From sequence record MW822008.1: 64,000 nt of DNA. The stretch is one strand, 5' to 3'. The stretch comes from Escherichia phage BF17. Below the pieces are notes generated by a model. That model had not been told where the DNA came from. It saw only the letters and a program-made list of their open reading frames with translations, and searched no databases. Positions 784 through 57,306 of this stretch are shown in pieces. Both the position numbers and the translations under genes were made by a program. Every line of letters starts with the position of its first letter. The stretch's first letter is position 1.

Positions 784-975
784 ATGTTGATTTATCAATG
801 TGATAACATTCGTGTTATGCAGCATCCATACTTACAAATCTTTGATGTGCAGCAGTATATGGAAGGTGATGATCCAAGAACCTATGGTCGTAAGTATGAT
901 TACTTCACTGTAAAGCAGTGTCGTGACATCAAAGAAGTACGACAATTAGTTCAAGAACTTCAAAATAAAGGTTGA
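784..975 (+). CDS. hypothetical protein
   Basis: ORF 754-975 trimmed to ATG 784, which follows GAGGA; ends in terminator hairpin. Confidence 0.45.
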   Translation: MLIYQCDNIRVMQHPYLQIFDVQQYMEGDDPRTYGRKYDYFTVKQCRDIKEVRQLVQELQNKG

Positions 976-1003
976 CTTCGGTCAACCTTTTTTGTTATAA
1001 TTA
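969..1003 (+). terminator. hairpin terminator with embedded -35 TTGACT and downstream TATAAT
   Basis: AGGTTGACTTCGGTCAACCT + T-run, then TTATAAT ~17 nt after TTGACT. Confidence 0.6.
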
Positions 1004-1030
1004 TTTCATCAACTACTGGGGATTTTAATT

Positions 1031-1471
1031 ATGTACGTATATCGTTTTGAACTTAAATTCAGTTATATTGAACCTAACTTAGATCCAGCAAAAACAGTAG
1101 GGCCGTTCGCACGGTACTCTTCACGATACAGTACTAAAAATGGATTTGACCGTTTGTGCATGACCACGCCTTCGCAATTCCAACCAGAACCAACTGAAGA
1201 TGGAATCTATTCAATCAAACGTGGCTGGGCATTTGGCTGTCAGAGTTTGAATGATTTGTTTAAGTTCTTTACTATGGACTTGGGTAAATTACATCGTGCA
1301 GGGTTTGCTGTATCAGTATATGAAGTTCCTGATAATCATGTTGACATTGGTCGTAGTCAGGTTCAGTACTATTGTGGTAGTGCCAATCTGGTTCGTATTA
1401 TGTCAGTGAGAGAAGCAAAGGATGAGTACCGCCAAAGTAAAAGAGTAATACATGAGGCTGTATATGGATAA
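1031..1471 (+). CDS. hypothetical protein
   Basis: 146-aa ORF downstream of the terminator/promoter unit. Confidence 0.6.
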   Translation: MYVYRFELKFSYIEPNLDPAKTVGPFARYSSRYSTKNGFDRLCMTTPSQFQPEPTEDGIYSIKRGWAFGCQSLNDLFKFFTMDLGKLHRAGFAVSVYEVPDNHVDIGRSQVQYYCGSANLVRIMSVREAKDEYRQSKRVIHEAVYG

Positions 1472-1808
1472 GACTCAAATAGAATTAAAAAAATTTGTAT
1501 CGTTTTATCTACCCAATGACCCACGTTGTACACAATATGATGTTGCATATTACAATGCATTGACTACACAGTTAATGAAGAAATTCAAACAGTGCTTGAC
1601 TGTATTCAATGATGATGGTAGACGTAGATATAGAATCATTCCAATGAATGATGAAAACGATAACTACTTTGACTTTGATGTTGTTTTTCGAGCATACAAT
1701 GATGATAGAATAAAATTAAATTATGAGCAAATAATGCTTGACCTGAGTGTTATCTGTGTTATAATTACTCACATAGCCGAACTTGATGGTTTAAAAGAAT
1801 GGTATTAA
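1452..1808 (+). CDS. hypothetical protein
   Basis: 118-aa ORF; true start may be ATG 1464. Confidence 0.5.
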   Translation: MRLYMDKTQIELKKFVSFYLPNDPRCTQYDVAYYNALTTQLMKKFKQCLTVFNDDGRRRYRIIPMNDENDNYFDFDVVFRAYNDDRIKLNYEQIMLDLSVICVIITHIAELDGLKEWY

Positions 1809-1822
1809 CTTAGAGGATAATC

Positions 1823-2089
1823 ATGAAGCTTAAATTACAATACAATGGTTTTACTTTGCGTAACGACACTGAGTTTGTCAATCGTTCACCCGGTGCTGAG
1901 TTGTTTTTGCGAGAGATGAACATTCCTTTCGTCATCACTACTGTTGGTGACCGTGAAGTGCTACAATACGCAGAGCATCAAGTTATTGATGTTCCGTGGT
2001 ATTCTGAGCATATGTATATGGATATGGCCCGTCGCTACGACTGTAAGTTCGTAGTTGAAGGTGATAAAATTACAGTCCAATTCAAATAA
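1823..2089 (+). CDS. hypothetical protein
   Basis: 88-aa ORF, AGGA upstream. Confidence 0.55.
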   Translation: MKLKLQYNGFTLRNDTEFVNRSPGAELFLREMNIPFVITTVGDREVLQYAEHQVIDVPWYSEHMYMDMARRYDCKFVVEGDKITVQFK

Positions 2090-2100
2090 GGTAACTTAAA

Positions 2101-2394
2101 ATGATCAGTACTTCAGTAAATGCAAGCATCGTGGCAGACGTAGAAATGGTTAAAGAATGTACAGACGAAACCCTTCGCAACATGTACATCAATGATTTGA
2201 TTTCAGAGTACGGAAGTCGTGGTGTTCATGAGTTTGTTCGCCTAAGCGGTGAATTGATGAAGAATCGCATTCGTATGAAGCTTAATGTGCATCCAAAAGC
2301 ATGGGCGTTTACAATGAAGTACGCTGAAGATATTGTTGAGTTGCGTCGCAATGATGTGTATAATCGTTTACACAATGGTACATTAAAGGACTAA
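2101..2394 (+). CDS. hypothetical protein
   Basis: 97-aa ORF; followed by inverted repeat GGAATCC...GGATTCC. Confidence 0.55.
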   Translation: MISTSVNASIVADVEMVKECTDETLRNMYINDLISEYGSRGVHEFVRLSGELMKNRIRMKLNVHPKAWAFTMKYAEDIVELRRNDVYNRLHNGTLKD

Positions 2395-2444
2395 ATTATA
2401 GGAATCCGTAAAAGGATTCCTGTTCTTGTTTATAAGGTAATAAA

Positions 2445-2669
2445 ATGAAATATCTAGTACTAGTACTGCTATTCTTGAGTACTGTTGTATGTGCTAAACC
2501 AAAGTATCATGTAGTGTGTATCAACGAGATGGAAGGATATACTGAAACATATAAGAACCATATTGTTGAAGTTGCAGCCCAAGGTTCCTATGGGACCATC
2601 ATCTTCCTTAAGAACAATGTGATTGTTCAGTACAAAAAAGATTTAAATTGTAAAGTGACTAAAAAATGA
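2445..2669 (+). CDS. small secreted protein
   Basis: 74 aa; signal-peptide-like MKYLVLVLLFLSTVVCA. Confidence 0.55.
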   Translation: MKYLVLVLLFLSTVVCAKPKYHVVCINEMEGYTETYKNHIVEVAAQGSYGTIIFLKNNVIVQYKKDLNCKVTKK

Positions 2670-2739
2670 TCTAGATCAATTTTTCAGATATTCTCTGTAA
2701 ATAATAGCAGTACAGAACATTATTTTACGGAGGTGTAAT

Positions 2740-2976
2740 ATGGAAACTATAATCATCATATGTGCGTTGTTTGCATTTTTGGTAATGTGGTCACCAACAT
2801 TCATTGCATATAAAATGAAAAATAAAAATGCAGAAGCAATTATGTACGTAAACTTATGTTGCATACTAACTTATGGAATACTTTTATTCTTTACTGAATT
2901 TACATTAATCCCAGTAGTAGTTTGTTCATCAATGTTTATTTGGTTGTTTCTGCTTTATGAATCTATTAAAAAATAA
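2740..2976 (+). CDS. small membrane protein
   Basis: 78 aa, two hydrophobic helices; GGAGG upstream. Confidence 0.55.
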   Translation: METIIIICALFAFLVMWSPTFIAYKMKNKNAEAIMYVNLCCILTYGILLFFTEFTLIPVVVCSSMFIWLFLLYESIKK

Positions 2977-3030
2977 AAGATATAGGGTTGGTAATATGCC
3001 ATCCCTTTTACTTTATGTGGGGTTTAATTA

Positions 3031-3603
3031 ATGAATAGAAAAGGTAAGTTCAAAGTATCAAAGAAGAACAAAAGTTCTAGATTTAGACCTATAACTTTAA
3101 CTTTTAAGGCTAAAGAAGAATTAACTGCACTTAGTAAAAAGATAATTTCATCTAAGATTAAAGTATCATACGTAAATTCGGTAAAATTTCAGAAGGTTAA
3201 ACCACAAGACAAACTCATTTCACTTATATTTAAACGTAATGATTTTGAGATATTAGTAGATGATTATAGAGCCTATAATGCTGGATTCATTCATGTCACT
3301 TGTAATACCGAACTAACTGAGTTGGAACATTTGACATGTATCATAAGTGTAGATAACGGTGTGGTGAAGTACAATTTTTTACATTTTACCAATATCAATA
3401 ATGGAATGGGTGTACAATCCAGACCTATAGTACCTACATGTGATGTGACTAATTTAGCAAAGCTCAATGAAGAAGAATATTTTCAAGAAAGCATTGTAAC
3501 TGAGCATTTAGATGCTATAATAGCAACTTACAAAGAATGCATATGGGTTTTGAATGCGATAAAGCCCAAATTGTGTTTAATGAATGTCGTTCGTGATTTA
3601 TAA
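3031..3603 (+). CDS. hypothetical protein
   Basis: 190-aa ORF with Lys-rich N-terminus. Confidence 0.6.
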   Translation: MNRKGKFKVSKKNKSSRFRPITLTFKAKEELTALSKKIISSKIKVSYVNSVKFQKVKPQDKLISLIFKRNDFEILVDDYRAYNAGFIHVTCNTELTELEHLTCIISVDNGVVKYNFLHFTNINNGMGVQSRPIVPTCDVTNLAKLNEEEYFQESIVTEHLDAIIATYKECIWVLNAIKPKLCLMNVVRDL

Positions 3604-3616
3604 CTGGAGATGTAGT

Positions 3617-4060
3617 ATGGGTTGGATTAACGTTAATAGCATTGAACTAAATGAGCAAGACATATTTGCCTTTGTTAATTTGGTAGAGAACATTGCTATT
3701 AAAGGTCGTCTGTTTAGTTCATCGGACGGTAAAAAATGGATCTCTCTTATGAACGACAATGGCGAGATTTATGACGTTATGCAACTACCTCATTGGGCTT
3801 ATAAGAATACATCTGATGATGTGATGGCTGCTGTTATGCGTGAGTTTGAGAAGCTGCCAGGTGGTGATATTAAGAACATCGTATTCAATGCAGAACGCAT
3901 GAACTACACACCAGAGCAGCTTCAACAGTTGGCAATTGCTGCCTATCAAGCTGCCATTAAGAAACCTGAATGTGTGATATTAAAGTACACACCGAACTTG
4001 AAGTTAACATTAGAAGATATGGATTCCTTTATCTTCAGTTCAGAACTTAAACAGTACTGA
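3617..4060 (+). CDS. hypothetical protein
   Basis: ORF 3584-4060 trimmed to ATG 3617 after GGAG. Confidence 0.55.
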   Translation: MGWINVNSIELNEQDIFAFVNLVENIAIKGRLFSSSDGKKWISLMNDNGEIYDVMQLPHWAYKNTSDDVMAAVMREFEKLPGGDIKNIVFNAERMNYTPEQLQQLAIAAYQAAIKKPECVILKYTPNLKLTLEDMDSFIFSSELKQY

Positions 4061-4171
4061 TTTGACTTTGGAACAACCATTTCATATGTGATATAATCTT
4101 AAGTGTCTGTTGAAATAAACAGCACATGAAGTATAAATATTAAAGTAATTTATCTCTTTAAGGAGTATGAA

Positions 4172-4555
4172 ATGGTTGATAAATGGAATAAGAAAGATCC
4201 ATCGCATGATGTGGATATTTCTGGAATTGATAATGCACATAAGCATAAGTATCTTGATTCACTAGGTCTACTAAAGCCTGACCAAAGTCTTGCACATGAT
4301 CGTCCTTCACGTGAAAAAGCTTTCAGTCTAGAATCACTAGGCCATGAATTGAATCGTGTATTTGAAGATCATCCAATTTATGTACGTGATATCATTGAGA
4401 AACTTAAAGTGACTCCTAAAGAGCACTTCAAGGCAACAGTACACGCAGCATTCCGTGCACTACATGAAGCACTAAAGAAAACTCATAACCTTCGCAAGAT
4501 TCATGATGACATCGTGAACTCTATTGAAGGCGAAAAACATAAGTTTAAAAAATAA
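4172..4555 (+). CDS. hypothetical protein
   Basis: 127 aa; AAGGAG upstream; shares SLGLL motif with 5403-6914. Confidence 0.6.
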   Translation: MVDKWNKKDPSHDVDISGIDNAHKHKYLDSLGLLKPDQSLAHDRPSREKAFSLESLGHELNRVFEDHPIYVRDIIEKLKVTPKEHFKATVHAAFRALHEALKKTHNLRKIHDDIVNSIEGEKHKFKK

Positions 4556-4561
4556 TTAAAA

Positions 4562-4595
4562 GGGGTTGACTTCAGTCAGCCCTTTGTCGTATAAT
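4562..4595 (+). terminator. hairpin terminator with embedded -35 and downstream TATAAT
   Basis: GGGGTTGACTTCAGTCAGCCC then TATAAT. Confidence 0.6.
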
Positions 4596-4642
4596 ATTTT
4601 CATCAAGTGATACAAAATACAAACAACGTGAGGTATTAAATT

Positions 4643-4756
4643 ATGCAAGGTACTAAATTCATCATCGCTGCCCTAATCGCTGCTGTTGTAGTGGGTACAG
4701 TATGTTATTCAATTGACACCTATATCAATACACCTAGTGTTGAACAAACCAAATAA
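4643..4756 (+). CDS. small hydrophobic peptide
   Basis: 37-aa ORF below track cutoff; GAGG upstream; single TM-like helix. Confidence 0.35.
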   Translation: MQGTKFIIAALIAAVVVGTVCYSIDTYINTPSVEQTK

Positions 4757-4764
4757 GGGATATC

Positions 4765-5028
4765 ATGGCTGAAACATTATCACTATATGCGTTAGTACTG
4801 TTATTTGTCGGATTTCTTCCCGCACTCATTACCGCCATTCGTGTTGTTAAACATGAAGCTGCATTGATTGTATGTAGTATTGGGTCGAACATTCTATTGT
4901 ATTTCTTTTTGACAAATACTATTGTACTGTTTGCTTTCTTTATCATGATTCTCTGGGTACTTGTAATTCTCGGATTCTTCATTTGGTCATTGGTTGATCC
5001 TAAGAAAAAATCAGGAGAAGTGAAATGA
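4765..5028 (+). CDS. small membrane protein
   Basis: 87 aa, three hydrophobic segments. Confidence 0.55.
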   Translation: MAETLSLYALVLLFVGFLPALITAIRVVKHEAALIVCSIGSNILLYFFLTNTIVLFAFFIMILWVLVILGFFIWSLVDPKKKSGEVK

Positions 5029-5321
5029 AATTAATTATTGCAATGATGATGTGTTTGGCTTTCCCTGTACTGGCTACTCCTAATCTGGACTGCACACTGT
5101 TGCGTTCAGATGGTGACACACTTGAAATCAACACATATGAACTCTTTGGTCCAAGTGTAGTGGAGAATGAAACCACCTACAATTTCAAAGCTATTGACTT
5201 TGAAGGTAATGTTCCAGTACTAACTACAATGACTATTGACAAAACTACTTTACTCGGACGAATCACCACACAACGAGGTGAAAGTAAAACATTCACAGCG
5301 AAAGCTGACTGTAACTACTAA
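5025..5321 (+). CDS. small secreted protein
   Basis: 98 aa; signal-peptide-like MKLIIAMMMCLAFPVLA; overlapping stop/start. Confidence 0.6.
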   Translation: MKLIIAMMMCLAFPVLATPNLDCTLLRSDGDTLEINTYELFGPSVVENETTYNFKAIDFEGNVPVLTTMTIDKTTLLGRITTQRGESKTFTAKADCNY

Positions 5322-5342
5322 TGGTATAGTACAGTGAAAATA

Positions 5343-5380
5343 GGGTTGACTTCGGTCAACCTTTTCTTTATACTATAAAT
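5343..5380 (+). terminator. hairpin terminator with embedded -35
   Basis: GGGTTGACTTCGGTCAACC + T-run. Confidence 0.55.
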
Positions 5381-5402
5381 ATAGTCATAGAGAATAAACA
5401 AT

Positions 5403-6914
5403 ATGAAATCTATGGAGAGAAATCAAATGCCAGGTCAATTTACTGATAAAAATGGCGGGAACATGGCAGGTCACTCTGATAAATGGAGTGAACGCAATCG
5501 TCGTCAAAATAGCTACCAAGCAGGACAGGGGTCACGTGGTTCACGTAATCAAGGGACAGGTTTAGCTGGTAAGGCAAACGCAGAAGCAGGTGAAGTTAAG
5601 AGTACTGAGAACATGACTGAGCTAGAAAAGCTACGTTATGTTAACTCATTAGGTCTTCTTAACGCAACACAGAAACAACGCCTTGCTGATATGGAACGTG
5701 CTGAGAAAGAACAAGCAGTTCCTAAAGAAGAACCAAAACCAGAAGCTCCTAAAGCAGCTAACCCTGTTAAAGAGTTATCTGATAACTTAGGTAAGATCTT
5801 TGCTAACAAACCACAGTTGATTCAGGGTATTGTCAAAGCACTACAGGCAGTTCCTAAAGAAGAACTCAAAGGTAAAGCACAAGCTGTACTTGATGCAATG
5901 AAAGGTAATAAGAGCACTGAACCCACTGAAGTATTCAGTACTATCATGCGTGCACTTGAAGGTACACACAAAGAAGATTCCAAAGAACCTGAACAGGGTG
6001 AAGCAAGTCTTGATGGTATTCTTAAAACTTTTGATAGTATTGGTAAAGCAGACCGTGCTAATGCCCAGCAAGTCAAGAATGTACTGGCTAAACTTGAAAA
6101 CCGTTTAGAAGGTAAAGATGATAAGGTTAAGCTCGTATCAGATGCAGTTAACAGTGCACTTAAATCTTATGTACAAGGTGAGAAAAGTCGCTTCGTAACA
6201 GCTATGGATGCTGCATTCAACACTATGAAAAAGTATGAAGCAGAACATGGTGAGAAAGTGACACCTGATGGATATCTACTACGTAAAGATGAAGAAGGTG
6301 CAGTTGAACAGAAAGATGTTGAGCCTGAGCAAGAAGATCTACCTGATACCGTTGATATGGATGGATACATTCATCGTCCTGAGATGGAAGAGTTTGGGTC
6401 AGATAAAGAAGGTTTTGAACATGCAATGGCAGTATATAAAGCATTAGTTAAAAATCCAGATTATGCTAACCGTTTTGTTGACGAGTTTGATAGTGCATGG
6501 AATAACTACAAAGAGAAAGGTTATGACTTCCCTGCTGAAGCTGCATTCTTTGAACTTGGTAAACTATTAGCTAAACATGGAATTGACGTTGGTTCATCTG
6601 ATTCTGACGGTATGGAAGAAGAACATCTTGAAATGACTGATAAATCAATTCATGAACTTCAAAAGTTAATGATGTGGATATCCGAGATTGGTAAAAAAGC
6701 AGGTGCTGATAGTAAAAGTATCAACAAAAATATTAGTTGGATTAAAGATAATGTTGGTAACAATGCTCGTAAACTTCAAAAGGCTTGGGCTGATTTAGTA
6801 AATGGTGCAGATGATGTTGACATTGAATCACCAGAAGCATATGAGTATGCACTAACTACACTTGATAACTCATTCAAAGAGTACGACCGTGGTGTTGGAA
6901 AGGATAAAAAATAA
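5403..6914 (+). CDS. large charged low-complexity protein
   Basis: 503 aa, Lys/Glu/Asp/Ala-rich; several possible start ATGs between 5403 and 5439. Confidence 0.65.
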   Translation: MKSMERNQMPGQFTDKNGGNMAGHSDKWSERNRRQNSYQAGQGSRGSRNQGTGLAGKANAEAGEVKSTENMTELEKLRYVNSLGLLNATQKQRLADMERAEKEQAVPKEEPKPEAPKAANPVKELSDNLGKIFANKPQLIQGIVKALQAVPKEELKGKAQAVLDAMKGNKSTEPTEVFSTIMRALEGTHKEDSKEPEQGEASLDGILKTFDSIGKADRANAQQVKNVLAKLENRLEGKDDKVKLVSDAVNSALKSYVQGEKSRFVTAMDAAFNTMKKYEAEHGEKVTPDGYLLRKDEEGAVEQKDVEPEQEDLPDTVDMDGYIHRPEMEEFGSDKEGFEHAMAVYKALVKNPDYANRFVDEFDSAWNNYKEKGYDFPAEAAFFELGKLLAKHGIDVGSSDSDGMEEEHLEMTDKSIHELQKLMMWISEIGKKAGADSKSINKNISWIKDNVGNNARKLQKAWADLVNGADDVDIESPEAYEYALTTLDNSFKEYDRGVGKDKK

Positions 6915-6923
6915 ACATTTAAA

Positions 6924-6957
6924 AGGTTGACTTCGGTCAACCTTTTTTTGTAAATAT
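6924..6957 (+). terminator. hairpin terminator with embedded -35
   Basis: AGGTTGACTTCGGTCAACCT + TTTTTTT. Confidence 0.6.
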
Positions 6958-6985
6958 TGTAGAGGGTTTTATAAGAGGTAATGCA

Positions 6986-7237
6986 ATGTTTAAATATGTT
7001 TTATTTTCACTTGTATTGTTTACTGATATAGTTTATAGTACTGAATACCAGTGCTCCATTGCTAGACAGGAGTTTAGAAACGGTGAGTTCTATACCAAGT
7101 CTTACACTAGAGGATTGGTACATGACAATAATAAAACTATAGGGTTCAATGCATTTGATAACAAAGATCGATATACGTCTGGAATACTATCTGAACGTAA
7201 GTCGGATATACTAGGTATCGAGCGTGAATTCCGGTGA
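6986..7237 (+). CDS. small secreted protein
   Basis: 83 aa; signal-peptide-like N-terminus. Confidence 0.5.
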   Translation: MFKYVLFSLVLFTDIVYSTEYQCSIARQEFRNGEFYTKSYTRGLVHDNNKTIGFNAFDNKDRYTSGILSERKSDILGIEREFR

Positions 7238-7598
7238 CACGGTTGCAATGTGTAATGATATTGAGAGTACTAAGAAAGTATATACTAATGGTGAAAATAC
7301 CTTTAGATTCCACAATCTTACTACCAATGAAAGTTTATACTTCTACAACTGTAAAGAGTTCATTAAACCTGCGGATAACTCATGTGATATGCCGGAGCCA
7401 AAAGCTGCTGTATGTGAGGAACCACAATCTAAAGCTGACAAAGATTCAAAAGATAAGAAAGACAAAGCTGACAAATCGGATAAAAAAGAAAACAAAAAGA
7501 AAGCTAAAGATGATAAAGATAAAAAGTCCCCTAAGCCAAATCCATTTGAAAAGCCAAAGAATGAAAAGCCAAAACCAGACATGACATGTAAAATATAA
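7224..7598 (+). CDS. Cys-containing protein with Lys/Asp-rich tail
   Basis: 124 aa; overlaps 6986-7237 by 14 nt in another frame. Confidence 0.45.
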   Translation: MNSGDTVAMCNDIESTKKVYTNGENTFRFHNLTTNESLYFYNCKEFIKPADNSCDMPEPKAAVCEEPQSKADKDSKDKKDKADKSDKKENKKKAKDDKDKKSPKPNPFEKPKNEKPKPDMTCKI

Positions 7599-7606
7599 AA
7601 GAAAAG

Positions 7607-7639
7607 GGTTGACTTCGGTCGGCCCTTTTTGCTATAATC
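7607..7639 (+). terminator. hairpin terminator with embedded -35 and TATAAT
   Basis: GGGTTGACTTCGGTCGGCCC TTTTTGC TATAAT. Confidence 0.6.
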
Positions 7640-7664
7640 ATTTCATCAACTACTGGAGGCAAAC

Positions 7665-8078
7665 ATGTTAAAAGTTATTTTCCGTTCTATCAGTTCATTA
7701 CTTCTTATGATTAGTTCAGTTTGTTATGCAAATGAAGTATCTGATTTATTTGAGAAGAATTACCCAACTGCACAAGAGATGGGTGTTTTAAAATGCAAGC
7801 TAACTTCGTACAACATCATCGGCAGTAAACTTGTACTGGAACATGAACGTAGTACACCAATCCCTCTAGTAGAAGAAGGTAGTACCTTTAGCTTCAAGTA
7901 CGGGGTGAATGTAACATCTGGTGTAATGAACAATGTTGATGCAGAGACTGGTTCAACATGGAGTACTAGCGGTAAAGATGTGTTTCATCGTATGCGTGAA
8001 AATGGTAAACTGAAGTACGTATATGAAAGTTCATTCATGAAACGTGTATTCATTATAAAAAATTGTGTACCAGCATAA
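7665..8078 (+). CDS. secreted protein
   Basis: 137 aa; signal-peptide-like MLKVIFRSISSLLLMISSVCYA. Confidence 0.6.
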   Translation: MLKVIFRSISSLLLMISSVCYANEVSDLFEKNYPTAQEMGVLKCKLTSYNIIGSKLVLEHERSTPIPLVEEGSTFSFKYGVNVTSGVMNNVDAETGSTWSTSGKDVFHRMRENGKLKYVYESSFMKRVFIIKNCVPA

Positions 8079-8089
8079 GGAACAACATC

Positions 8090-8365
8090 ATGCGTTCATT
8101 TGAAAACTTAATCGGTAAACTTCGCTTACAAGAAATTGAAGCTGATGTGAAGGAATTATCTGAAACTAAGAGTTACATTCATTTAGATGAACTGTTTATT
8201 AAGTACGGTGAGATTGGTTTTAAGTCATTATTTGTTTTTGTCATGAAGGTGCATAGTTTAAAGTACTTTGATTTGAGTTCAAAAGACGGACAACCAAATC
8301 TGTATTACATGTATTATCTTAAGAACATAGACGAAGCTAATACATTATTCTTAGAATATATGTAG
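8090..8365 (+). CDS. hypothetical protein
   Basis: ORF 8063-8365 trimmed to ATG 8090. Confidence 0.5.
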   Translation: MRSFENLIGKLRLQEIEADVKELSETKSYIHLDELFIKYGEIGFKSLFVFVMKVHSLKYFDLSSKDGQPNLYYMYYLKNIDEANTLFLEYM

Positions 8366-8374
8366 GGGTAAAAA

Positions 8375-8713
8375 ATGGAACAACATTTTGAATTAATTAA
8401 TAAGGTATCATTTTATGTAGTATCGTTAATTTGGGTGTATTACATGTTTTGTTACATTATTGCATTCTTCCGATACACGACCTTGTATCAACGCATATAC
8501 TACGATGCACCAATTTCATTTTTGATGTTCAGTGCATGTACGTGGGGGATAATTGAAGCACTGGTATGTGGATATAGTACGGACGAATTAAATCTCGTAT
8601 CGGTGTTGACATTACTAACAATTGCTACTATGATAGCTACAGTTCCGATATTTTTGCTCTTTAAACTGCTTCATCGCATCGATGAGTGGCGTAATAAAAT
8701 CCCTGAAAAGTAA
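8375..8713 (+). CDS. small membrane protein, paralog family (cluster A)
   Basis: 112 aa, hydrophobic, basic tail WRNKIPEK. Confidence 0.6.
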   Translation: MEQHFELINKVSFYVVSLIWVYYMFCYIIAFFRYTTLYQRIYYDAPISFLMFSACTWGIIEALVCGYSTDELNLVSVLTLLTIATMIATVPIFLLFKLLHRIDEWRNKIPEK

Positions 8714-8716
8714 GGA

Positions 8717-9064
8717 TTGATAATGATTTTTTACACTAATGCGTTTGCTTATGCCGTTGCATCAATCTACATTGTGTACTTCTTATTTGGTGGAGTACTG
8801 TACTTCTTTAAGTACAAAACATTGTTTAACCGAATGTATCCAAATCACCCAATTGTAGTAGTACTTTTGATTATTTCTGTTGCTCACATCATTGTAGAAA
8901 CAATAATGGGTATTAGTGCAGTACATTACAGTCTAGGTACTATTGTAATTATTACTATGATCATCGCATACATTTTAGTAATGGGTTCTGGTTTATTTGG
9001 GAATGTAGCAATGAAAATGTATAATCGAATCAAAACATTACGTGATAATCTACCGGAGCGTTGA
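8717..9064 (+). CDS. small membrane protein, paralog family (cluster A)
   Basis: 115 aa, tail LRDNLPER. Confidence 0.6.
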   Translation: MIMIFYTNAFAYAVASIYIVYFLFGGVLYFFKYKTLFNRMYPNHPIVVVLLIISVAHIIVETIMGISAVHYSLGTIVIITMIIAYILVMGSGLFGNVAMKMYNRIKTLRDNLPER

Positions 9065-9065
9065 G

Positions 9066-9410
9066 ATGTATAATTTAAATTTAATATCATATATCATAAC
9101 AACACTGTTTACTTTCTATGTCTTTGTTGGTATACTCCTACTGTACTTTAAATTTTATAAACTCTTTGACCGTTTATATCCATCATTGAAACATGAATTC
9201 TTATTGGTGATGTACATCTGTTTAACGTGTATGTCTACATTTTTCACTGTATTTGATGGTATCATCGGTATTAAAGCTGAAGATCCAAATGGGAGTACAC
9301 TTGTTGCCTTTATTCTGGTAGGATTCTTCGGTACTTATATCACTTTCATTTCAACATGGTCTGTGGTTGATTATCTCATTAGATTACGAGATAAAATGCC
9401 AAATCGATAG
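9066..9410 (+). CDS. small membrane protein, paralog family (cluster A)
   Basis: ORF 9042-9410 trimmed to ATG 9066; tail LRDKMPNR. Confidence 0.55.
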   Translation: MYNLNLISYIITTLFTFYVFVGILLLYFKFYKLFDRLYPSLKHEFLLVMYICLTCMSTFFTVFDGIIGIKAEDPNGSTLVAFILVGFFGTYITFISTWSVVDYLIRLRDKMPNR

Positions 9411-9418
9411 GGGGTGCT

Positions 9419-9676
9419 ATGTTTGCATTGCGTAATAAAAATACAAAAGAGATTCTATGTATCTCAACAGTATGGGATTGTGCAGGAAGTGAAATGATTC
9501 TCGAAGAAGGTTCAGGTGATTGTGTTTATGTTGTACAGGATCGTCGCGAACTGGAATCATTACTTGACGAATTTAATGCTGGTGGAAATCCTAAAAGTAC
9601 TCAATTCCCTGAGATCAGGAATCCAGCACCACCAGGCTCTTATGAAATTCTACAACTGTGGGAGATGGATAAGTAA
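9419..9676 (+). CDS. hypothetical protein
   Basis: 85-aa ORF, GGGGG upstream. Confidence 0.5.
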   Translation: MFALRNKNTKEILCISTVWDCAGSEMILEEGSGDCVYVVQDRRELESLLDEFNAGGNPKSTQFPEIRNPAPPGSYEILQLWEMDK

Positions 9677-9936
9677 TGCGTCAAATGCACAAAGTAACCG
9701 AGCTAAACAAGCGTCTGATTAAACAATCAATGTTTGAGGATAAAGAGTCTTACTATAACTTCAAACGTGCTGTAGAGGCTGCTATCCACATTCAGAAGCT
9801 TAAAGATAGTGGATGTATTATTCTCGAAAATGGTTCTGACGTTGTTACTGATGACTTCAGTGTAGCGTTTGATGTTTCACCTGATGGTTCGCTATCAATG
9901 CCACGCTTAGGGACTGGTGACATGACTGTGTGGTAG
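9676..9936 (+). CDS. hypothetical protein
   Basis: 86-aa ORF, start overlaps upstream stop. Confidence 0.5.
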   Translation: MRQMHKVTELNKRLIKQSMFEDKESYYNFKRAVEAAIHIQKLKDSGCIILENGSDVVTDDFSVAFDVSPDGSLSMPRLGTGDMTVW

Positions 9937-10131
9937 GTTTCACTATGGGGAATGTACCAGGCACGGTGTATGTAGATGATGCTGAGTTGAAAGAAAGCTT
10001 CAAAAACTTATCGCATCTTGAACCACAATACGCACATGAAATGAATTTATTTTGAGTTGACAAACTCATTCAGTACTGTATAATGTTTATCAAGGGGATG
10101 AACTTCTCATCCCCACAATCGAGGAATTGTC

Positions 10132-10686
10132 ATGATTACTTTTAAGAAAACTGCTAACCACATCCATGAGATCTACATTAACGGTCACAAAGCTGGCCTT
10201 CTTCGTTTACTCGCCCATCATCCGAATATTACCGTATCTGATAATGAACCTAAAGATTGGCGTGTATTTTTCTTTGGAAAGTACAGTGATTTTCAAGTAT
10301 CAAACCTGAAGAACATTCGTTCAGTATGCACGTTAACTGAAATTAAAGAAAAGTTAACCAAAGCATTGAAAACTAATCCAGATAGTGTTCTTCCACCTGA
10401 TAACTTTGTAGAGAAAGGATATGCCTTAGCTCATTTCAAAGATGGTACTATTCAATCTATCAGTACTGAATATGAATATCAATGGACTGAGTACTTCACT
10501 TATGGATCGCGTAATACATTGATGGCTTCACGTAGTAAATTGGAAGAAGTACTGACTCGTATGAATGAACGCGAGCGTCAATTTTATGACAAACCAGAAA
10601 TGTGGAGTTCAACTTACATTGACCGTATTGACTATGTTATTATGACTCCAATCTTTGACACTGCTTACTATGATTCTTTGAAATAA
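10132..10686 (+). CDS. hypothetical protein
   Basis: 184-aa ORF; GAGG upstream; preceded by TTGACA...TATAAT. Confidence 0.65.
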   Translation: MITFKKTANHIHEIYINGHKAGLLRLLAHHPNITVSDNEPKDWRVFFFGKYSDFQVSNLKNIRSVCTLTEIKEKLTKALKTNPDSVLPPDNFVEKGYALAHFKDGTIQSISTEYEYQWTEYFTYGSRNTLMASRSKLEEVLTRMNERERQFYDKPEMWSSTYIDRIDYVIMTPIFDTAYYDSLK

Positions 10687-10697
10687 GGATAACTTAT

Positions 10698-10874
10698 ATG
10701 AAACTACGTACTCGTAATCGACTGATGGATGCACTGTACCATGAACAGCTTTCACTGAATGAAGTGAAGCGTCAGTTAATGTACACATATCTGTTACCCG
10801 CTCGCATTGCAAAACAACGTGCTAAAGAATTGCTGAAAGAAGCAATCGAGTACTGGGAATCTGATTCGTACTAA
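10698..10874 (+). CDS. small hypothetical protein
   Basis: 58-aa ORF not in track; AGGA upstream. Confidence 0.4.
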   Translation: MKLRTRNRLMDALYHEQLSLNEVKRQLMYTYLLPARIAKQRAKELLKEAIEYWESDSY

Positions 10875-10902
10875 TTGTCACGTTAATTAAGTGAGGCGAT
10901 AA

Positions 10903-11154
10903 ATGAAAATTTTATTAGTTCTAATACTACTAATTGTTTTACCATTTACGTTAGTATCTCCTGAACTTGCATGGAATGTGTTTGTGTACTTACTATGTAC
11001 TATTGTAGTAAATGGTATCTTGTTCTTAGTTCTATTCATAAATGGAATAGGACACGGTGGAGGATGGACCAGTACTGCTGATATTGTACATAAAACCACT
11101 ATGTCTTTATTTGTAGTGTGGAATTTATTCTGGACTTGGTTTGTGTTCTTCTAA
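10903..11154 (+). CDS. small membrane protein
   Basis: 83 aa, hydrophobic throughout; GAGG upstream. Confidence 0.55.
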   Translation: MKILLVLILLIVLPFTLVSPELAWNVFVYLLCTIVVNGILFLVLFINGIGHGGGWTSTADIVHKTTMSLFVVWNLFWTWFVFF

Positions 11155-11164
11155 TTAAAAAAAT

Positions 11165-11536
11165 ATGAATATAGATTTGAAAGGTGCAACACGAACTGTC
11201 ATACTCATTGGGGAATATGCTATCAAGATTCCAACCTTTAAAAGTTGGAAGCTATTCTTAACAGGGATGATAGCTAACCTCAATGAACGTTCGTGGATGC
11301 AGTACTCCAAGCGTAGTAATAGTGGTATCTGCCCTACGTTGTGGTCATCATGTACTGGACTAGTAACTGTACAGAAACGTTGTAAGCCAGTGCAACATAG
11401 GGGTTTATTTTGGCTGGAGTTGTGTGCTTTAGCATTGAATTCAGAGTTAAGTGCTGACTTCTTTTATTCAGATGCGAAGCCAGAAAACTTTGGGTATCTG
11501 TGTGGTAAGTTGGTTAAACTTGATTATGGAGATTAA
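11165..11536 (+). CDS. hypothetical protein
   Basis: 123-aa ORF. Confidence 0.5.
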   Translation: MNIDLKGATRTVILIGEYAIKIPTFKSWKLFLTGMIANLNERSWMQYSKRSNSGICPTLWSSCTGLVTVQKRCKPVQHRGLFWLELCALALNSELSADFFYSDAKPENFGYLCGKLVKLDYGD

Positions 11537-11537
11537 T

Positions 11538-11810
11538 ATGTACGCACTGTATAATAAAGAAAAGAAACGATTTGCTAAGGTTGAAATTTCGATTGATACA
11601 TTTGACATGTTGGAGTACTGTATTGTAACGGACTTATATGCTAACTTGTATTACGTTCTTGATGACGTATCAGTACTGCAACGATTGCTTGAGAATTCCA
11701 AAAGTCAATGCCAGGGCATCCATGATGGTTCATCTTATGAAACACCTGAGTGTTCCTACGGCTATCTGGACGGGTATGAGATTGTGAAGTTGGGTATTGT
11801 TGGATGCTGA
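11538..11810 (+). CDS. hypothetical protein
   Basis: ORF 11451-11810 trimmed to ATG 11538 after GGAG. Confidence 0.5.
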   Translation: MYALYNKEKKRFAKVEISIDTFDMLEYCIVTDLYANLYYVLDDVSVLQRLLENSKSQCQGIHDGSSYETPECSYGYLDGYEIVKLGIVGC

Positions 11811-12084
11811 AACAATGACCAATGATGAATTCATGGAATTTATAAAAAATATACAAAGTTCAAAAACTGGAGAAGAAAAAGAAACATATAAATTTAAAAG
11901 TTCAATAATACTTATGAAAATGAAATTGATTTCTCATACTTTTAATGAGAAGTATGATTTTATCTTTGTGAACAGTGACTACAATGATTTAGTTTATAAT
12001 ATAAATGTTTTGTGGGAAGAAGAACTACAAAGCAAAATACATACAGTACGAAAACCATTAAAAAATCCTTTCAAAACGGGTTGA
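11797..12084 (+). CDS. hypothetical protein
   Basis: 95-aa ORF; ends in terminator hairpin. Confidence 0.5.
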   Translation: MLDAETMTNDEFMEFIKNIQSSKTGEEKETYKFKSSIILMKMKLISHTFNEKYDFIFVNSDYNDLVYNINVLWEEELQSKIHTVRKPLKNPFKTG

Positions 12085-12110
12085 CTTCGGTCAGCCCTTT
12101 TTGCTATAAT
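12078..12110 (+). terminator. hairpin terminator with embedded -35 and TATAAT
   Basis: GGGTTGACTTCGGTCAGCCC TTTTTGC TATAAT. Confidence 0.6.
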
Positions 12111-12138
12111 CATTTCATCAAGACGAGAGGATGAATAC

Positions 12139-12654
12139 ATGACACGCATTAACTTAGTACACGTTAAAGAACTTGCTGACCAACATCTGATGGCTGAATA
12201 TCGTGAACTCCCACGTGTGTTTGGTGCTGTACAAAAACATGTTCAAGCACGTAAGCGAGTCCGTGATTTCAAAATTAACAGTACTTACCTGTTAGGTTCA
12301 GGTCATGTAACATTCTTCTACAACAAGTTATTGTACTTACAGAAGCGTCATATTGATATTGTTAACGAATGTTTGCGTCGTGGTATGAAGATTCAAAACA
12401 CTGAAGTAAACGACATTAGCGGATTCCCTGCTGAGTTTTGTAATGACTACGTACCATCGGAGTCAGAGATTAAAATGTCTCGTGAGCGTTTGATTGAGAA
12501 GATACAGATGAAGCCTATGTGGTATAAATTTACTGACGTTGAACGCCCACAGTACGTTAAAGATATGCAGGACGTAAGTGGTGATATAGAATCTAGTACT
12601 GATATGTTCGACGAAATTGAAGAACAAATCAAAGATGAAATGAATAATTATTAA
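12139..12654 (+). CDS. denV: pyrimidine-dimer DNA glycosylase / AP lyase (T4 endonuclease V family)
   Basis: MTRINL...[19 protein letters not shown]...VRDFKI...GHVTFFY closely matches T4 endonuclease V as I recall it; ~35-aa acidic C-terminal extension. Confidence 0.88.
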
Positions 12655-12660
12655 AGGAAA

Positions 12661-12693
12661 GGGTTGACTTCGGTCAGCCCTTTTTGCTATAAT
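12661..12693 (+). terminator. hairpin terminator with embedded -35 and TATAAT
   Basis: same unit as 12078. Confidence 0.6.
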
Positions 12694-12719
12694 CATTTTA
12701 TCAACTTAAGAGGTAACAC

Positions 12720-12962
12720 ATGAAACTATCTTTTATACGATTAGCAGAATTCTTCGGTACTGATATCATTACTTTACAACAAATTGCAGACAATACTTCA
12801 TTAAGTACACAAGAAGTACTTGACTTAGATGTAATTCAGTGCGATAATACGTCCATCGATTACAAAGAAGGTCTTGTCGAAAAAGATAAGATTCAGGCTA
12901 AGATTAATGGTGCTGGACGGGTTCAGTACTGGAAAGGAGTTTTAAGTAATGTTAATTTATGA
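12720..12962 (+). CDS. hypothetical protein
   Basis: 80-aa ORF, AGAGG upstream. Confidence 0.5.
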   Translation: MKLSFIRLAEFFGTDIITLQQIADNTSLSTQEVLDLDVIQCDNTSIDYKEGLVEKDKIQAKINGAGRVQYWKGVLSNVNL

Positions 12963-14364
12963 CGAGCTTGGTGTTGGATACCATTTTACCGATGTTGTGC
13001 AATTGGAGGGTGAATATGTACGCGACGCACGAGAAGACACACCACTTGATAAAATAAAAACACTTAATTCACTAATAATAAAAAATATAATACACATTGA
13101 ATTATTACAAGGATTTGTCGTTGATGGCATAGATGAGTATAATAAAAAAAGATATTCTAAAAAATTTCGACAACCAAAATGTAATTTGAAAATAGCATTT
13201 TGGTATGATGGTTTATTGTTCATTCAAGGTTATAAACAATTTCTTTCCAACTTAAGTTCAGGAAACTATTGTCCGGGTGAAAAAATATATAATTTAGAAA
13301 AAACCATTTTATCTGCAAAAAATAAACTATCCGGTGGGTGTAGTATAATAACTGGGAATGGTGAGTGGCTGGGGAGAACAAATACTAAACTTTATGCACT
13401 CTGCACGAAAACCAATAAACCTTGGGAATTCACCATCGGTACACAATATTCTCAGAATTGTCCTGACTGTAAAAAAAGCAAAAAAACTAATAAAGACTTA
13501 GATGTGTTTTTTGAACAACAATGTATAAAATTAAATGCAAAATTTATTGGTATTTTCATGTATAATGGTGTAGATAATAGTATTGTCAAATCGGTATGTA
13601 ATTGTTGTGGTAATGAACGTATGGATTATGGAATAACGTTTCGTGCGGGCAGTAGAAAAAGTTTATGCCCACTTGAATCAAGCAGAGTAGAAAAAATAAA
13701 AAAATCCCAATACTTACAAAATGAAGTTTTGGAAGAAAAAATAAAAACTGCAATGAAAATCCATAATATAAGATTTGATGATTCTAACAAATTTGAACCT
13801 GAGAAATACGCAAATGTCAAAACTACTATTATAAATTATATTGATTCGAGTGGAACCCCTGGTAGTACATGTCTTTCAAATTTGATTTATAATACAGACA
13901 AACGAAGTATTGGTTCAAAAAACATGACTAATGGTGGTGAGTTGTATACAAATTCATTTGGAAATATGTACAAACTAGGTCACACGACAAAAACAAGTCG
14001 TAGGATATACGAACAAAATTTATCCTTCTCCAAAAAAAATATATTATGGAAAAATGAACTAATTTTAAAGTTTCCTGGTGAAAATGGGTATGGTCGAGCG
14101 ATTTATTTTGAAAAAACAATTTTAGATTATGTAAATAATATAATTGATTGGGTGAAAAACGTTCAAAAAACACCAATATTCGCCCGTGGTTGTGTTGACG
14201 AAGGTGATGGACATACTGAAACATTTTTAAAGATATATGAATCATATTTTAGATATAAATTGAATGAATTGTACTTGACATATAAAGATGAATGGGATAT
14301 AATTATTTTCAAAGATGAAAAGAATTTTATTTCTAATACAAGAGATACTAAAAATGACCAATGA
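12949..14364 (+). CDS. Cys-rich hypothetical protein in AT-rich insert
   Basis: 471 aa; Lys/Asn/Ile-rich; CPDCKK and CNCCGNE motifs. Confidence 0.6.
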   Translation: MLIYDELGVGYHFTDVVQLEGEYVRDAREDTPLDKIKTLNSLIIKNIIHIELLQGFVVDGIDEYNKKRYSKKFRQPKCNLKIAFWYDGLLFIQGYKQFLSNLSSGNYCPGEKIYNLEKTILSAKNKLSGGCSIITGNGEWLGRTNTKLYALCTKTNKPWEFTIGTQYSQNCPDCKKSKKTNKDLDVFFEQQCIKLNAKFIGIFMYNGVDNSIVKSVCNCCGNERMDYGITFRAGSRKSLCPLESSRVEKIKKSQYLQNEVLEEKIKTAMKIHNIRFDDSNKFEPEKYANVKTTIINYIDSSGTPGSTCLSNLIYNTDKRSIGSKNMTNGGELYTNSFGNMYKLGHTTKTSRRIYEQNLSFSKKNILWKNELILKFPGENGYGRAIYFEKTILDYVNNIIDWVKNVQKTPIFARGCVDEGDGHTETFLKIYESYFRYKLNELYLTYKDEWDIIIFKDEKNFISNTRDTKNDQ

Positions 14365-15412
14365 ACAAATTATTGATATTTTAAACAAACTTGGATATGA
14401 TGAAATAACAATTAATGTGGATAAATGTACATATGATGTATTTCATCCTAAAAGAAAAATAATTTATACTGGTATGGATTTAAATAAGATCAACTTTAAT
14501 ACAAAAGCAATAAAATTTCCACCGTTGGATTATAACACAATAAAATTAAGTTGTGAGAATATTTTCAAAGATAGTGAATGTAAATTTTGTTATTTGGAAT
14601 ATAATGAAAACAAACCAAATGACACAAAAGTTTTTTATTGTGCACCTAAAAGAAAAAAACCAACCAGTATATATTATAGACATTTGGTGAGTGGTGGTAT
14701 TCGTATTAATGTTGAATGGGATATTGAAGACATCTATGATAATGTCTTGATTAAAATAAAAGATATGGATGGTTTTGATATTGATCATGTTGAATATAAT
14801 GAAAAAGAAACTTCAAAAACTATAATTCATTTTAAACACCCAAATAGATTATTAACAGTTAAAAATGAATTTAGATATATAATGAGAGATAATTGGTCAT
14901 TAAAAGAACCGCAGATTTCATTAGACGAAATAAATGAGATTGGTAAGAAATTTTCAAAAGAACATCCAAAATATAAGTATCTTGGATGTAAAAGATTCAA
15001 AGGTTCAAAATCGATATTATCGTTTGTTAAAATCGATAATGGAAAAATTTGGAATCCATCATATGAATCAATAGTTTATAGTAATATTAACAGTGATGTT
15101 GGTGGATATATTGCAAATGATATAAAAAATTTATATATATTTAAAACTGATTCATTTGTTGGAACATTTATATGCAATGAAACAAAATTTAACTTTCATA
15201 AAAATGAAAGGGAGTTTTGGTTGGATGATGGGGAGATTGAGATAATTGGACAATTCAATGAACGATATTCTTTTTTAAAAGGTATTGTAGATACAGTTAA
15301 TAGTGAAATAGAAATAGATCATGATTTAGATATTGTTGGATATACGTGTATTAGGAAAATACATAATATTGAATATATACAACAACGTTGTTATGATTTA
15401 TTCAATTTATAA
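14354..15412 (+). CDS. hypothetical protein in AT-rich insert
   Basis: ORF 14315-15412 trimmed to ATG 14354; ~353 aa. Confidence 0.6.
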   Translation: MTNEQIIDILNKLGYDEITINVDKCTYDVFHPKRKIIYTGMDLNKINFNTKAIKFPPLDYNTIKLSCENIFKDSECKFCYLEYNENKPNDTKVFYCAPKRKKPTSIYYRHLVSGGIRINVEWDIEDIYDNVLIKIKDMDGFDIDHVEYNEKETSKTIIHFKHPNRLLTVKNEFRYIMRDNWSLKEPQISLDEINEIGKKFSKEHPKYKYLGCKRFKGSKSILSFVKIDNGKIWNPSYESIVYSNINSDVGGYIANDIKNLYIFKTDSFVGTFICNETKFNFHKNEREFWLDDGEIEIIGQFNERYSFLKGIVDTVNSEIEIDHDLDIVGYTCIRKIHNIEYIQQRCYDLFNL

Positions 15413-15420
15413 CAAAAAAA

Positions 15421-15453
15421 GGGTTGACTTCGGTCAGCCCTTTTTGCTATAAT
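15421..15453 (+). terminator. hairpin terminator with embedded -35 and TATAAT
   Basis: same unit as 12078. Confidence 0.6.
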
Positions 15454-15481
15454 TATTTCATCAACTGATGAGGATAACGAA

Positions 15482-53463: not shown

Positions 53464-53679
53464 AATCATTAGCTTATTACAGTTCGGCGGTGATCGGTGC
53501 ATTGATCGCGGCATTGTTAGTAACCTATCTATTCTTTATGGTGATTTAAATGAATCCTAACGGTTTAATTTACAGTACTACTAAAACGAAAGCAGATAAA
53601 GCGAAAGTAAAGGAGTACATTAAGCAAGGCATGACGCGAAAGGCGGCAGTACTGAAAGCTAAAAAATAAATGAAAAAAG

Positions 53680-53699
53680 TGGTTGACTTCGGTCAGCCA
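53680..53699 (+). terminator. hairpin terminator with embedded TTGACT
   Basis: TGGTTGACTTCGGTCAGCCA. Confidence 0.5.
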
Positions 53700-53800
53700 T
53701 TTTGCTATTATATATTCATTGAGAGATAGCTCACTAGCCCACCGGGTGCATAAGTGTATCTATTATATAAGTATTGAGTACTGAGAACTATTTTTAAAAA

Positions 53801-57270: not shown

Positions 57271-57284
57271 AAATATTTGAAAAA

Positions 57285-57306
57285 GGGATTGACTCCGGTC
57301 AGTCCC
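57285..57306 (+). terminator. hairpin terminator with embedded TTGACT
   Basis: GGGATTGACTCCGGTCAGTCCC. Confidence 0.55.

Follow-up and report, generated by a model that had tools for sequence, protein, structure and literature searches.

Composite cassettes that combine a sigma-70 promoter with a stem-loop terminator were described in the T4-type phages RB49 and phi1, where they are known as PeSLs (promoter-early stem-loops; Arbiol et al. 2010, PMC2839356). Five subclasses are distinguished by the position of the stem-loop, one of which overlaps the -35 box, and both promoter and terminator activity were measured by means of lacZ fusions (PMC2839356). Furthermore, recombination between PeSL copies generates mini-circles as well as indels, and one of the crossovers was located in the loop (PMC2839356). 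The class was subsequently extended to T4/PST and nt-1/KVP40, with a stem consensus of A3-4G3-loop-C3T3-4 (Comeau, Arbiol & Krisch 2014, PMC4122927). Here, we analyze an intergenic element of roughly 45 bases that recurs in a stretch of 64,000 nucleotides of Escherichia phage BF17 (sequence record MW822008.1; the whole stretch is called the window below, and all positions refer to it). Judged from its sequence, each copy is quite probably a PeSL-type composite cassette, that is, a recombining repeat that would be read both as a strong sigma-70 promoter and as a terminator or attenuator.

Layout and census of the element

A search of the window with the pattern GGGTTGACTTCGGTCARCCC (up to three mismatches) returned 12 matches, all on the + strand, at positions 969, 4563, 5343, 6924, 7606, 12078, 12661, 15421, 53680, 57286, 60554, and 62521, by which the copies are named in the following. 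The same search of 100 dinucleotide-preserving shuffles of the 64-kb window gave no match (mean 0.00, max 0), so the 12 copies are not due to chance. As a relaxed search with a 12-nt core on both strands of the window yielded no further true copy, the count is exactly eight in the first 16 kb (first block) plus four at 53-63 kb (last block). The first-pass annotation of the window had arrived at precisely these numbers, with coordinates that were correct to within 1-2 nt.

Every copy shows the same order of parts: an A-tract, a stem with a four-base loop, and a T-run, which is followed by a -10 hexamer in 11 of the 12 cases. The A-tract (3-8 A) directly adjoins the stem on its 5' side in all 12 copies and corresponds to the AT-rich upstream tract of PeSLs. 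The stem comprises 8 bp (9 bp at three last-block sites), the loop is TTCG in ten copies, TTCA in one, and TCCG in one, and the 3' arm of the hairpin reads GTCAGCCC. Runs of 5-7 T are present at 969, 6924, 7606, 12078, 12661, and 15421, and of only 3-4 T at 4563, 5343, and all four last-block sites. Taken together, the near-invariant sequence of ~35-45 nt is AAAGGGTTGACTTCGGTCAGCCCTTTTTGCTAnnAT. Individual bases carry more than one role, for example, the C of TTGAC, which is also the closing base of the UUCG tetraloop, or the end of the T-run, which provides the TG of the extended -10.

The placement of the element is that of PeSLs, with an upstream stop codon, the element, and then a Shine-Dalgarno sequence (SD) and ATG. 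The stop codon lies 5-9 nt ahead of the stem in the first block (5-16 nt over all copies), and at 969 and 12078 the TGA stop of the upstream open reading frame (ORF) is the TGA within TTGACT (window 973-975 and 12,082-12,084; the ORF upstream of the first copy spans 784-975). At these two sites, stop codon, -35 box, and hairpin arm share bases. On the other side, the distance from the predicted start to SD and ATG is 20-25 nt in the first block (41 nt at 4563), and the last-block copies have leaders of 90-260 nt. With an intergenic space of only ~55-90 nt in total in the first block, nearly every base can be assigned a function. Each copy points in the direction of the + strand genes, and the minus-strand gene array at 18.8-38 kb is free of copies. 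Also in line with PeSLs, the copies accumulate in variable small-ORF regions: eight occur among the small hypothetical genes of the first 16 kb, and the other four among the small ORFs at 53-63 kb.

Hairpin and covariation

All 12 copies fold as predicted, with minimum free energies of -14.1 to -19.5 kcal/mol (43-nt context) and z-scores of -4.0 to -6.5, resulting in the stem-loop expected of a PeSL, which here encloses the -35 box. Among the 19 stem substitutions relative to the consensus, 18 preserve pairing; there are four kinds of doubly compensated outer pairs (A1-U20, U1-A20, A3-U18, and A2-U19), and the remaining changes are U.G wobbles. IMG/VR was additionally scanned for TTGACTTCGGTC-N10-13-TANNAT, leaving the outer stem unconstrained. 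At least 120 stretches were returned, a yield close to chance level for 16 fixed bases, so that only the subset with a complete hairpin is meaningful: all five free pairs are formed in 60 of 130 hits, as compared to an expected ~1.3 %. The outer stem itself varies by lineage (GGG/CCC, CCC/GGG, CAC/GUG, UAG/CUA, GAG/CUC, and CGG/CCG). In an alignment of 24 copies (12 from the window and 12 from outside), 94.1 % of the cells are paired, and pairing falls to 23-60 % when the registers are slid. Changes on both sides of a pair affect 46 cells versus 9.7+-3.3 in shuffles (0/500), a count that illustrates the pattern and is not a test, since the 12 outside sequences were picked for having hairpins.

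Given the wobbles, the turnover of the outer stem with pairing kept, and the cUUCGg-type loop, these compensatory and wobble changes point to an RNA hairpin, rather than a DNA operator, as the target of selection. The most frequent wobble concerns position 17 of the hairpin, which is G in 15 of the 24 copies (e.g., at window 12,094) instead of A and forms a U.G pair with position 4; this G turns the minus-strand mirror TTGAC into CTGAC and may, conceivably, thereby avoid an antisense -35. At 6924, the hairpin and a run of 7 T are retained without a -10, likewise in 121Q, which indicates that the hairpin is kept independently of the promoter. This copy (element 4) looks like a terminator-only version.

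Promoter and terminator signals

The promoter parts (A-tract, -35, TGn, -10, start region, and SD plus ATG) read as those of a near-consensus sigma-70 promoter, with -35 and -10 hexamers spaced by 17-18 nt in 11 of the 12 copies. According to the first-pass annotation, TTGACT is located 17-18 nt upstream of a TATAAT. This is accurate for six sites, where TATAAT follows at 18 nt (preceded by the extended -10 TG at five of them, not at 4563), and needs amendment for the others: The -10 is TATACT at 5343, TATTAT at three last-block sites, and TACTAT at 62521, all with 17-nt spacing, the -35 at 60554 is TTGATT, and 6924 has no acceptable -10. Transcription is predicted to start ~7 nt past the -10, within the conserved CATTTCATCAAC. 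The A-tract occupies the position of the proximal UP subsite, the UP-element consensus reportedly being that of Estrem et al.

For the terminator half, a d'Aubenton-Carafa-type rule was applied in our own implementation with modern energies, and the resulting scores are indicative only. The six sites with T5-7 reach +13 to +20, which is on par with trpA and lambda tR2 under the same scoring, and the values at 5343, 53680, and 57286 are marginal. In total, 9 of 12 copies score positive, as intrinsic terminators with a GC-rich stem-loop and an adjoining U-run should. In addition, terminators that independent annotators called with ARNold in the GenBank records of the phages G17 (four sites matching the last block) and GAP32 coincide with the homologous hairpins. 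Judging by their short U-runs, the last-block hairpins would attenuate transcription instead of fully terminating it, so that termination is probably partial at these four sites.

The idea that the same bases end one transcript and start the next had already been put forward in the first-pass annotation. In silico, it gains support from the covariation, the U-run scores, the ARNold calls, the near-consensus promoter, and the match to PeSLs. Site by site, the dual function has to be qualified for 6924, which lacks a usable -10, and for four to five sites with weak U-runs, which are more likely attenuators. Two aspects were missing from that proposal, namely the role in recombination and the existence of a previously described class of this kind.

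Cassette exchange at the element

The first 16 kb of the window are 98-99 % identical to the Escherichia phages Ecwhy_1, fEgEco12, and vB_Ec-M-J, and 88 % identical to 121Q. These relatives are Asteriusvirus (121Q/PBECO4-like) jumbo myoviruses of ~350-380 kb and kin to RaK2, GAP32, and CBB. Window positions 1-17,000 were compared with eight relatives by blastn, and the junctions were then aligned. Two identical copies, 12661 and 15421, flank a three-ORF cassette (Table 1) that is absent from fEgEco12, which has a single element instead. This single element is chimeric, flanked by 12661-type sequence upstream and 15421-type sequence downstream, and thus places the crossover within the 34-nt identical core. 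In the seven other relatives, the cassette is replaced by other genes. At the position of copy 12661, Ecwhy_1, 121Q, and JP4 carry a half element (GGGTTGACTTCGGTyAC, then unrelated sequence), an insert of 0.7-1.3 kb, and a full element, and these half-element junctions fall inside the hairpin. Moreover, several of the comparisons show similarity resuming 1-7 nt ahead of the stems of copies 5343, 12078, 12661, and 15421, and element 6 forms the right boundary of an HNH-endonuclease replacement in relatives. Indels that are bounded by chimeric or half elements are a trait that the locus shares with PeSLs. We infer the direction and mechanism of the individual events, the latter as homologous recombination because the repeats of ~35-60 nt lie in direct orientation.

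As a separate observation, the genes of the 471-aa and 365-aa ORFans in the cassette overlap (12,949-15,412) and are absent from the eight close relatives; Pfam and PHROG searches of the two proteins gave no match.

Comparison with described systems

The closest resemblance is to the PeSLs of Vibrio phage nt-1, which read AAAAGGGTTGC-TTCG-GCAGCCCTTTTTTG..TATTCT..CATTTATCAAC. In the 51-56 kb region of nt-1, described as PeSL-rich (PMC4122927), the intergenic spacers include AAAAGGGTTGCTTCGGCAGCCCTTTTTTGTTATTCTACATTTATCAAC and GAAAAGGGTTGCACTATGCAGCCCTTTTTAGTATTATATCTACATCGAAAC, both with the -35 inside a stem-loop, a T-run, a -10, and a CATCAAC-type start region, and one with a UUCG loop. A related sequence, AAAAGGGTTGACTGCGGTCAGCCCTTTCGCGTATTAT, is carried by the KVP40-type phage phi-pp2. 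Common to the nt-1/KVP40 PeSLs and the BF17 element are the A3-4G3 ... C3T3-4 stem-loop around the -35, often with a UUCG loop, the T-run, the -10 at 17 nt, the CATCAAC-type start, and SD plus ATG, as well as the clustering in small-ORF regions and the link to indels. However, the phage is a RaK2-related jumbo myovirus (Asteriusvirus) and not a member of the Straboviridae, the -35 is TTGACT as compared to the published nt-1 consensus TTGYVH, six copies have a perfect TATAAT and five the extended -10 TG, and in the last block a ~100-nt leader and a second promoter are joined to the element. With the PeSLs of RB49 and phi1, the element shares the combination of a near-consensus sigma-70 promoter and a stem-loop terminator in one intergenic cassette. 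In contrast to the element described here, the RB49 stems are polyG/polyC and mostly located between -35 and -10 or over the -10.

Similar to intrinsic terminators such as T7 T-phi and trpA, the element has a GC-rich stem of 8-9 bp, a tetraloop, and a U-run directly 3'. Its tail UUUUUGCU resembles the T7 T-phi tail UUUUUUGCU. Different from such terminators, the 5' arm doubles as -35 and the tail as spacer and extended -10 TG, and half of the sites have a shorter U-run. The lambdoid morons (Hendrix and colleagues; discussed in PMC2839356) are likewise single genes or small groups of genes with their own promoter and terminator that are gained and lost as units, but in their case promoter and terminator are separate and without the character of conserved repeats, and mobility is not attributed to them. 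In N4, too, the early promoters of a virulent phage feature a hairpin; there, however, the hairpin is a DNA structure read by the virion RNA polymerase, whereas the BF17 element appears to be a sigma-70 duplex promoter with an RNA hairpin.

Summed up, the element shows every PeSL property that can be assessed in silico and, on this basis, belongs to an already known class. For Asteriusvirus or RaK2-like phages, a literature search found no description of such a composite element: The papers on RaK2 and fEgEco12 do not mention promoters or terminators, and those on CBB and PA5oct list promoters and terminators separately. A full-text literature search for the literal sequence returned unrelated primer matches only. 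The new part is thus modest: the PeSL class occurs in RaK2-related jumbo phages, the cassette junctions are clean, and the TTGAC-UUCG design is found broadly across phage families.

Proposed function and alternative explanations

As duplex DNA, the element would represent a very strong promoter for the host sigma-70 polymerase, composed of the A-tract, TTGACT, a spacer of 17-18 nt, TGn with TATAAT or TATTAT, and a start ~7 nt further on in CATTTCATCAAC. When transcribed by a polymerase that comes from upstream, it would, as RNA, fold into GGGUUGAC-UUCG-GUCAGCCC, followed by U3-7, and serve as intrinsic terminator or, where the U-run is short, as attenuator. The upstream polymerase would be released before overrunning the -10 region, which would insulate each small and presumably early gene or gene group as a transcription unit of its own and spare the promoter occlusion. 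Being direct repeats of ~35-60 nt, the copies would moreover allow for the deletion, insertion, or swapping of gene cassettes by homologous recombination, with a functional element remaining after each event.

Several points weigh against this explanation, in addition to the choice of the outside hairpins mentioned above. On the promoter side, 6924 is without an acceptable -10 and the 18-nt spacer exceeds the optimum by one. As for termination, the scores at 4563, 60554, and 62521 are negative, the U-runs of only 3-4 U at 4563, 5343, and the four last-block sites may terminate weakly, the upstream A-tract is able to pair with the U-run and may reduce termination efficiency, and the literature searched contains no transcript-end data for this phage or any Asteriusvirus. 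With regard to recombination, ~6 of the 24 distinct breakpoints lie in elements and ~18 elsewhere, and cassette boundaries are expected at intergenic sites anyway. Since 8 of the 14 intergenic gaps of at least 40 nt carry an element, the association with breakpoints is statistically weak and only the junction anatomy of direct repeats and chimeras is informative; the null that breakpoints simply fall at intergenic sites is not clearly rejected. Furthermore, almost all relatives have a different version of the locus between denV and an AAA-ATPase-like gene, and homing-endonuclease genes are present there in several of them, so that endonuclease-driven mobility may also contribute.

Some of these points would also fit a true sigma-70 promoter whose hairpin mainly protects the upstream mRNA from 3'-exonucleases or acts as a weak pause or attenuator with mostly read-through. 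Six of the 12 sites have short U-runs, three sites are negative under the terminator rule, and hairpins with cUUCGg tetraloops are classic RNA stability elements. The PeSL authors themselves use the term 'terminator/attenuator' (PMC2839356). We nevertheless regard this scenario as unlikely, as the first-block sites with T5-7 score as bona fide terminators, in agreement with ARNold, and as a PeSL stem-loop of RB49 cut lacZ expression as much as rrnB T1 (PMC2839356). A pure stabilizer would also not need a conserved U-run, although the U-run is here additionally constrained as promoter spacer. The near-perfect 20-bp palindrome centered on the -35 region and repeated at many promoters has, on the other hand, the usual layout of an operator, at which a dimeric phage or host protein could silence or activate early promoters. 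This appears very improbable, because the commonest state at pair 4-17 is U.G (15/24 copies), which breaks the symmetry of the DNA and leaves RNA pairing intact, because the outer three pairs are wholly replaced between lineages yet remain complementary, and in view of the RNA-specific UUCG-type loop, the U-run after the stem, and the hairpin without promoter at 6924.

Copies and half copies bound indels, and near-identical copies occur in unrelated phage families, both of which would be expected of a selfish or purely recombinational repeat with merely incidental promoter and terminator likeness. Yet the element is always situated between a stop codon and SD/ATG, is oriented with the genes, and has a correctly spaced -10 and a conserved start region; it moreover lacks terminal inverted repeats and target duplications beyond the element itself and is absent from E. 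coli genomes (see below), which renders this option slightly less probable still than an operator. We hardly give any credence to an N4-type DNA hairpin, extruded from supercoiled DNA and read by a phage-encoded RNA polymerase, even though it would equally account for an early-promoter hairpin in a large virulent phage. N4-type hairpin promoters have a 3-nt loop and no sigma-70 hexamers and depend on the virion RNA polymerase, whereas the element has a 4-nt loop, full sigma-70 hexamers at the right spacing, and an extended -10; its G.U wobbles would be mismatches on one DNA strand, and the same element is found in T4-type phages that use the host polymerase.

Distribution and significance

A blastn search with a 59-nt element matched 193 phage records. 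These comprise all Asteriusvirus genomes (5-10 places each), RaK2, K64-1, and GAP32, Eneladusvirus (Yersinia, Erwinia, and Serratia), Xanthomonas phage XbC2, KVP40-type vibriophages, the Aeromonas phages 65 and AS-zj, Certrevirus (CB7, PBES 02, and CR8), and 50-kb Yersinia myoviruses. The matched sequences are near-identical and intergenic, for example, AAATAAAGGGTTGACTTCGGTCAGCCCTTTTTGCTACTAT in Aeromonas phage 65. Variants that retain the TTGAC-UUCG core but differ in a compensated outer stem include CCC/GGG in Klebsiella phage KP15 and ggacCCC...GGGgtcc in T4-like cyanophages. The sequence AAAGGGTTGACTTCGGTCAGCCCTTTTTGCTAnnAT itself is common to at least five unrelated or distantly related phage groups with different hosts. 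Among 5,426 complete E. coli genomes, not one carries the element, which rules out an origin from the host or a prophage.

It may therefore be asked whether PeSLs are a peculiarity of the T4 family. Our tentative and rather guarded suggestion is that they are not, but represent either a general part of virulent phages that is swapped across families or a unique solution, re-invented repeatedly, to the three-way problem of encoding a -35 box, a cUUCGg hairpin, and a U-run with extended -10 in the same bases. Be it by horizontal movement or by convergence, the element could in both cases carry small early-gene cassettes from one phage family to another. In short single-ORF segments of the window (~45,925-48,222; 54,318-54,524; 57,887-58,208; and 61,335-61,525), the DNA is 80-89 % identical to rV5/phAPEC8-like coliphages of 140-150 kb, including records labelled Campylobacter phage. 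This kinship suggests a possible exchange of small early-gene cassettes across families.

The finding does not overturn current understanding. It would extend the PeSL strategy to the RaK2/121Q jumbo phages, in which one short sequence may serve as the end of a transcription unit, the start of the next, and a portable site of recombination. It thereby offers a concrete mechanism for the differences in gene content among Asteriusvirus genomes that are otherwise 95-99 % identical, which is relevant for phage-therapy isolates. Annotation would improve as well, because existing records mark these sites only as terminators or leave them unmarked. As a natural insulator with a strong promoter in ~45 nt, the element could, furthermore, be a compact part for synthetic biology.

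Table 1. The 12 copies of the element in the window, the cassette between two of them, and the leaders and second promoters of the last block.
Feature	Position	Strand	Description
Composite element 1	962..1008	+	A-tract, hairpin AGGTTGAC-TTCG-GTCAACCT (969-988), T6, TGnTATAAT, predicted start
Composite element 2	4556..4602	+	Hairpin 4563-4582, TTCA loop, 3 T only, TATAAT at 18 nt
Composite element 3	5336..5381	+	Hairpin 5343-5362, TATACT at 17 nt; upstream of gene for 503-aa virion structural protein
Element 4	6917..6961	+	Hairpin 6924-6943, longest T-run (7 T), no acceptable -10
Composite element 5	7599..7645	+	Hairpin 7606-7625 with two U.G wobbles, T5, TGCTATAAT
Composite element 6	12071..12117	+	Consensus hairpin 12078-12097, T5, TGCTATAAT; upstream of denV (endonuclease V)
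Composite element 7	12654..12700	+	Consensus hairpin 12661-12680; left repeat of 2.76-kb cassette
Three-ORF 2.76-kb cassette	12,701-15,413	+	ORFs of 80 aa (phrog_34150), 471 aa, and 365 aa, the latter two ORFans; between elements 7 and 8
Composite element 8	15414..15460	+	Consensus hairpin 15421-15440, preceded by 7-A tract; right repeat of 2.76-kb cassette
Composite element 9	53673..53718	+	Hairpin TGGTTGAC-TTCG-GTCAGCCA (compensated outer pair), T4, TGCTATTAT at 17 nt; opens ~230-nt repeated unit
Composite element 10	57279..57324	+	9-bp hairpin GGGATTGAC-TCCG-GTCAGTCCC (compensated A-U pair), T3, TATTAT
Composite element 11	60547..60592	+	Hairpin GGGATTGAT-TTCG-GTCAGTCCC, -35 TTGATT, T3, TATTAT
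Composite element 12	62514..62559	+	Most degenerate copy; one-mismatch hairpin, T3, TACTAT
Leaders	53,718-53,800; 57,324-57,405; 60,592-60,675; 62,559-62,660		Between hairpin promoter and second promoter
Second promoter, hairpin-less	53805..53832	+	TTGCAA-N16-TATAAT, A-tract upstream, ~100 nt downstream of element 9
Second-promoter homologues after elements 10-12	57409-57436, 60679-60706, 62665-62693	+

Leader and second promoter family of the last block

The last block, which overlaps the annotated direct terminal repeat of vB_Ec-M-J, is organized differently, as the element here opens a unit of ~230 nt made up of the hairpin promoter, a leader of ~100 nt, a hairpin-less promoter, a G-rich 5' hairpin, and SD plus ATG. 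The conserved leader contains AGCCCACAGGGTGCATAAGTGTATC and the invariant block CCCAC-GGGTGCATAA-TGTATC. Rfam (gathering thresholds) and tRNA scans of the whole window gave no hits, and the four last-block leaders share only a weak, non-covarying helix of 7 bp, for which reason no noncoding RNA is claimed; the leader could be a protein-binding site or a short transcript. The second promoter belongs to a family of the form AAAAAGTACTTGCA-N16-TATAATGTTTTACATCGAGAGGGGG (TATAAT), followed by a G-rich 5' stem, SD, and ATG, with 15 copies between 46,532 and 63,130 (e.g., at 53,797-53,850; 57,401; 60,671; and 63,079). Overall, the region at 44-64 kb contains 108 promoter-like sites as compared to 65.7+-7.3 in shuffles, nine of them with a perfect 12/12 consensus, and almost each tiny ORF between 46,532 and 63,130 has its own consensus promoter.

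Further features of the window

Two other intergenic hairpins with T-runs are found in the first block at 2,976-3,031 and 2,394-2,445 (GGGTTGGTAATATGCCATCCCTTTT and AGGAATCCGTAAAAGGATTCCT) and may be degenerate or alternative terminator-only elements. On the minus strand, positions 18,796-38,020 are taken up by a tandem array of ~17 paralogues of 370-430 aa (~375 aa), which are labelled as chromosome condensation regulator (RCC1-like) in fEgEco12 and differ in copy number and content among the relatives.

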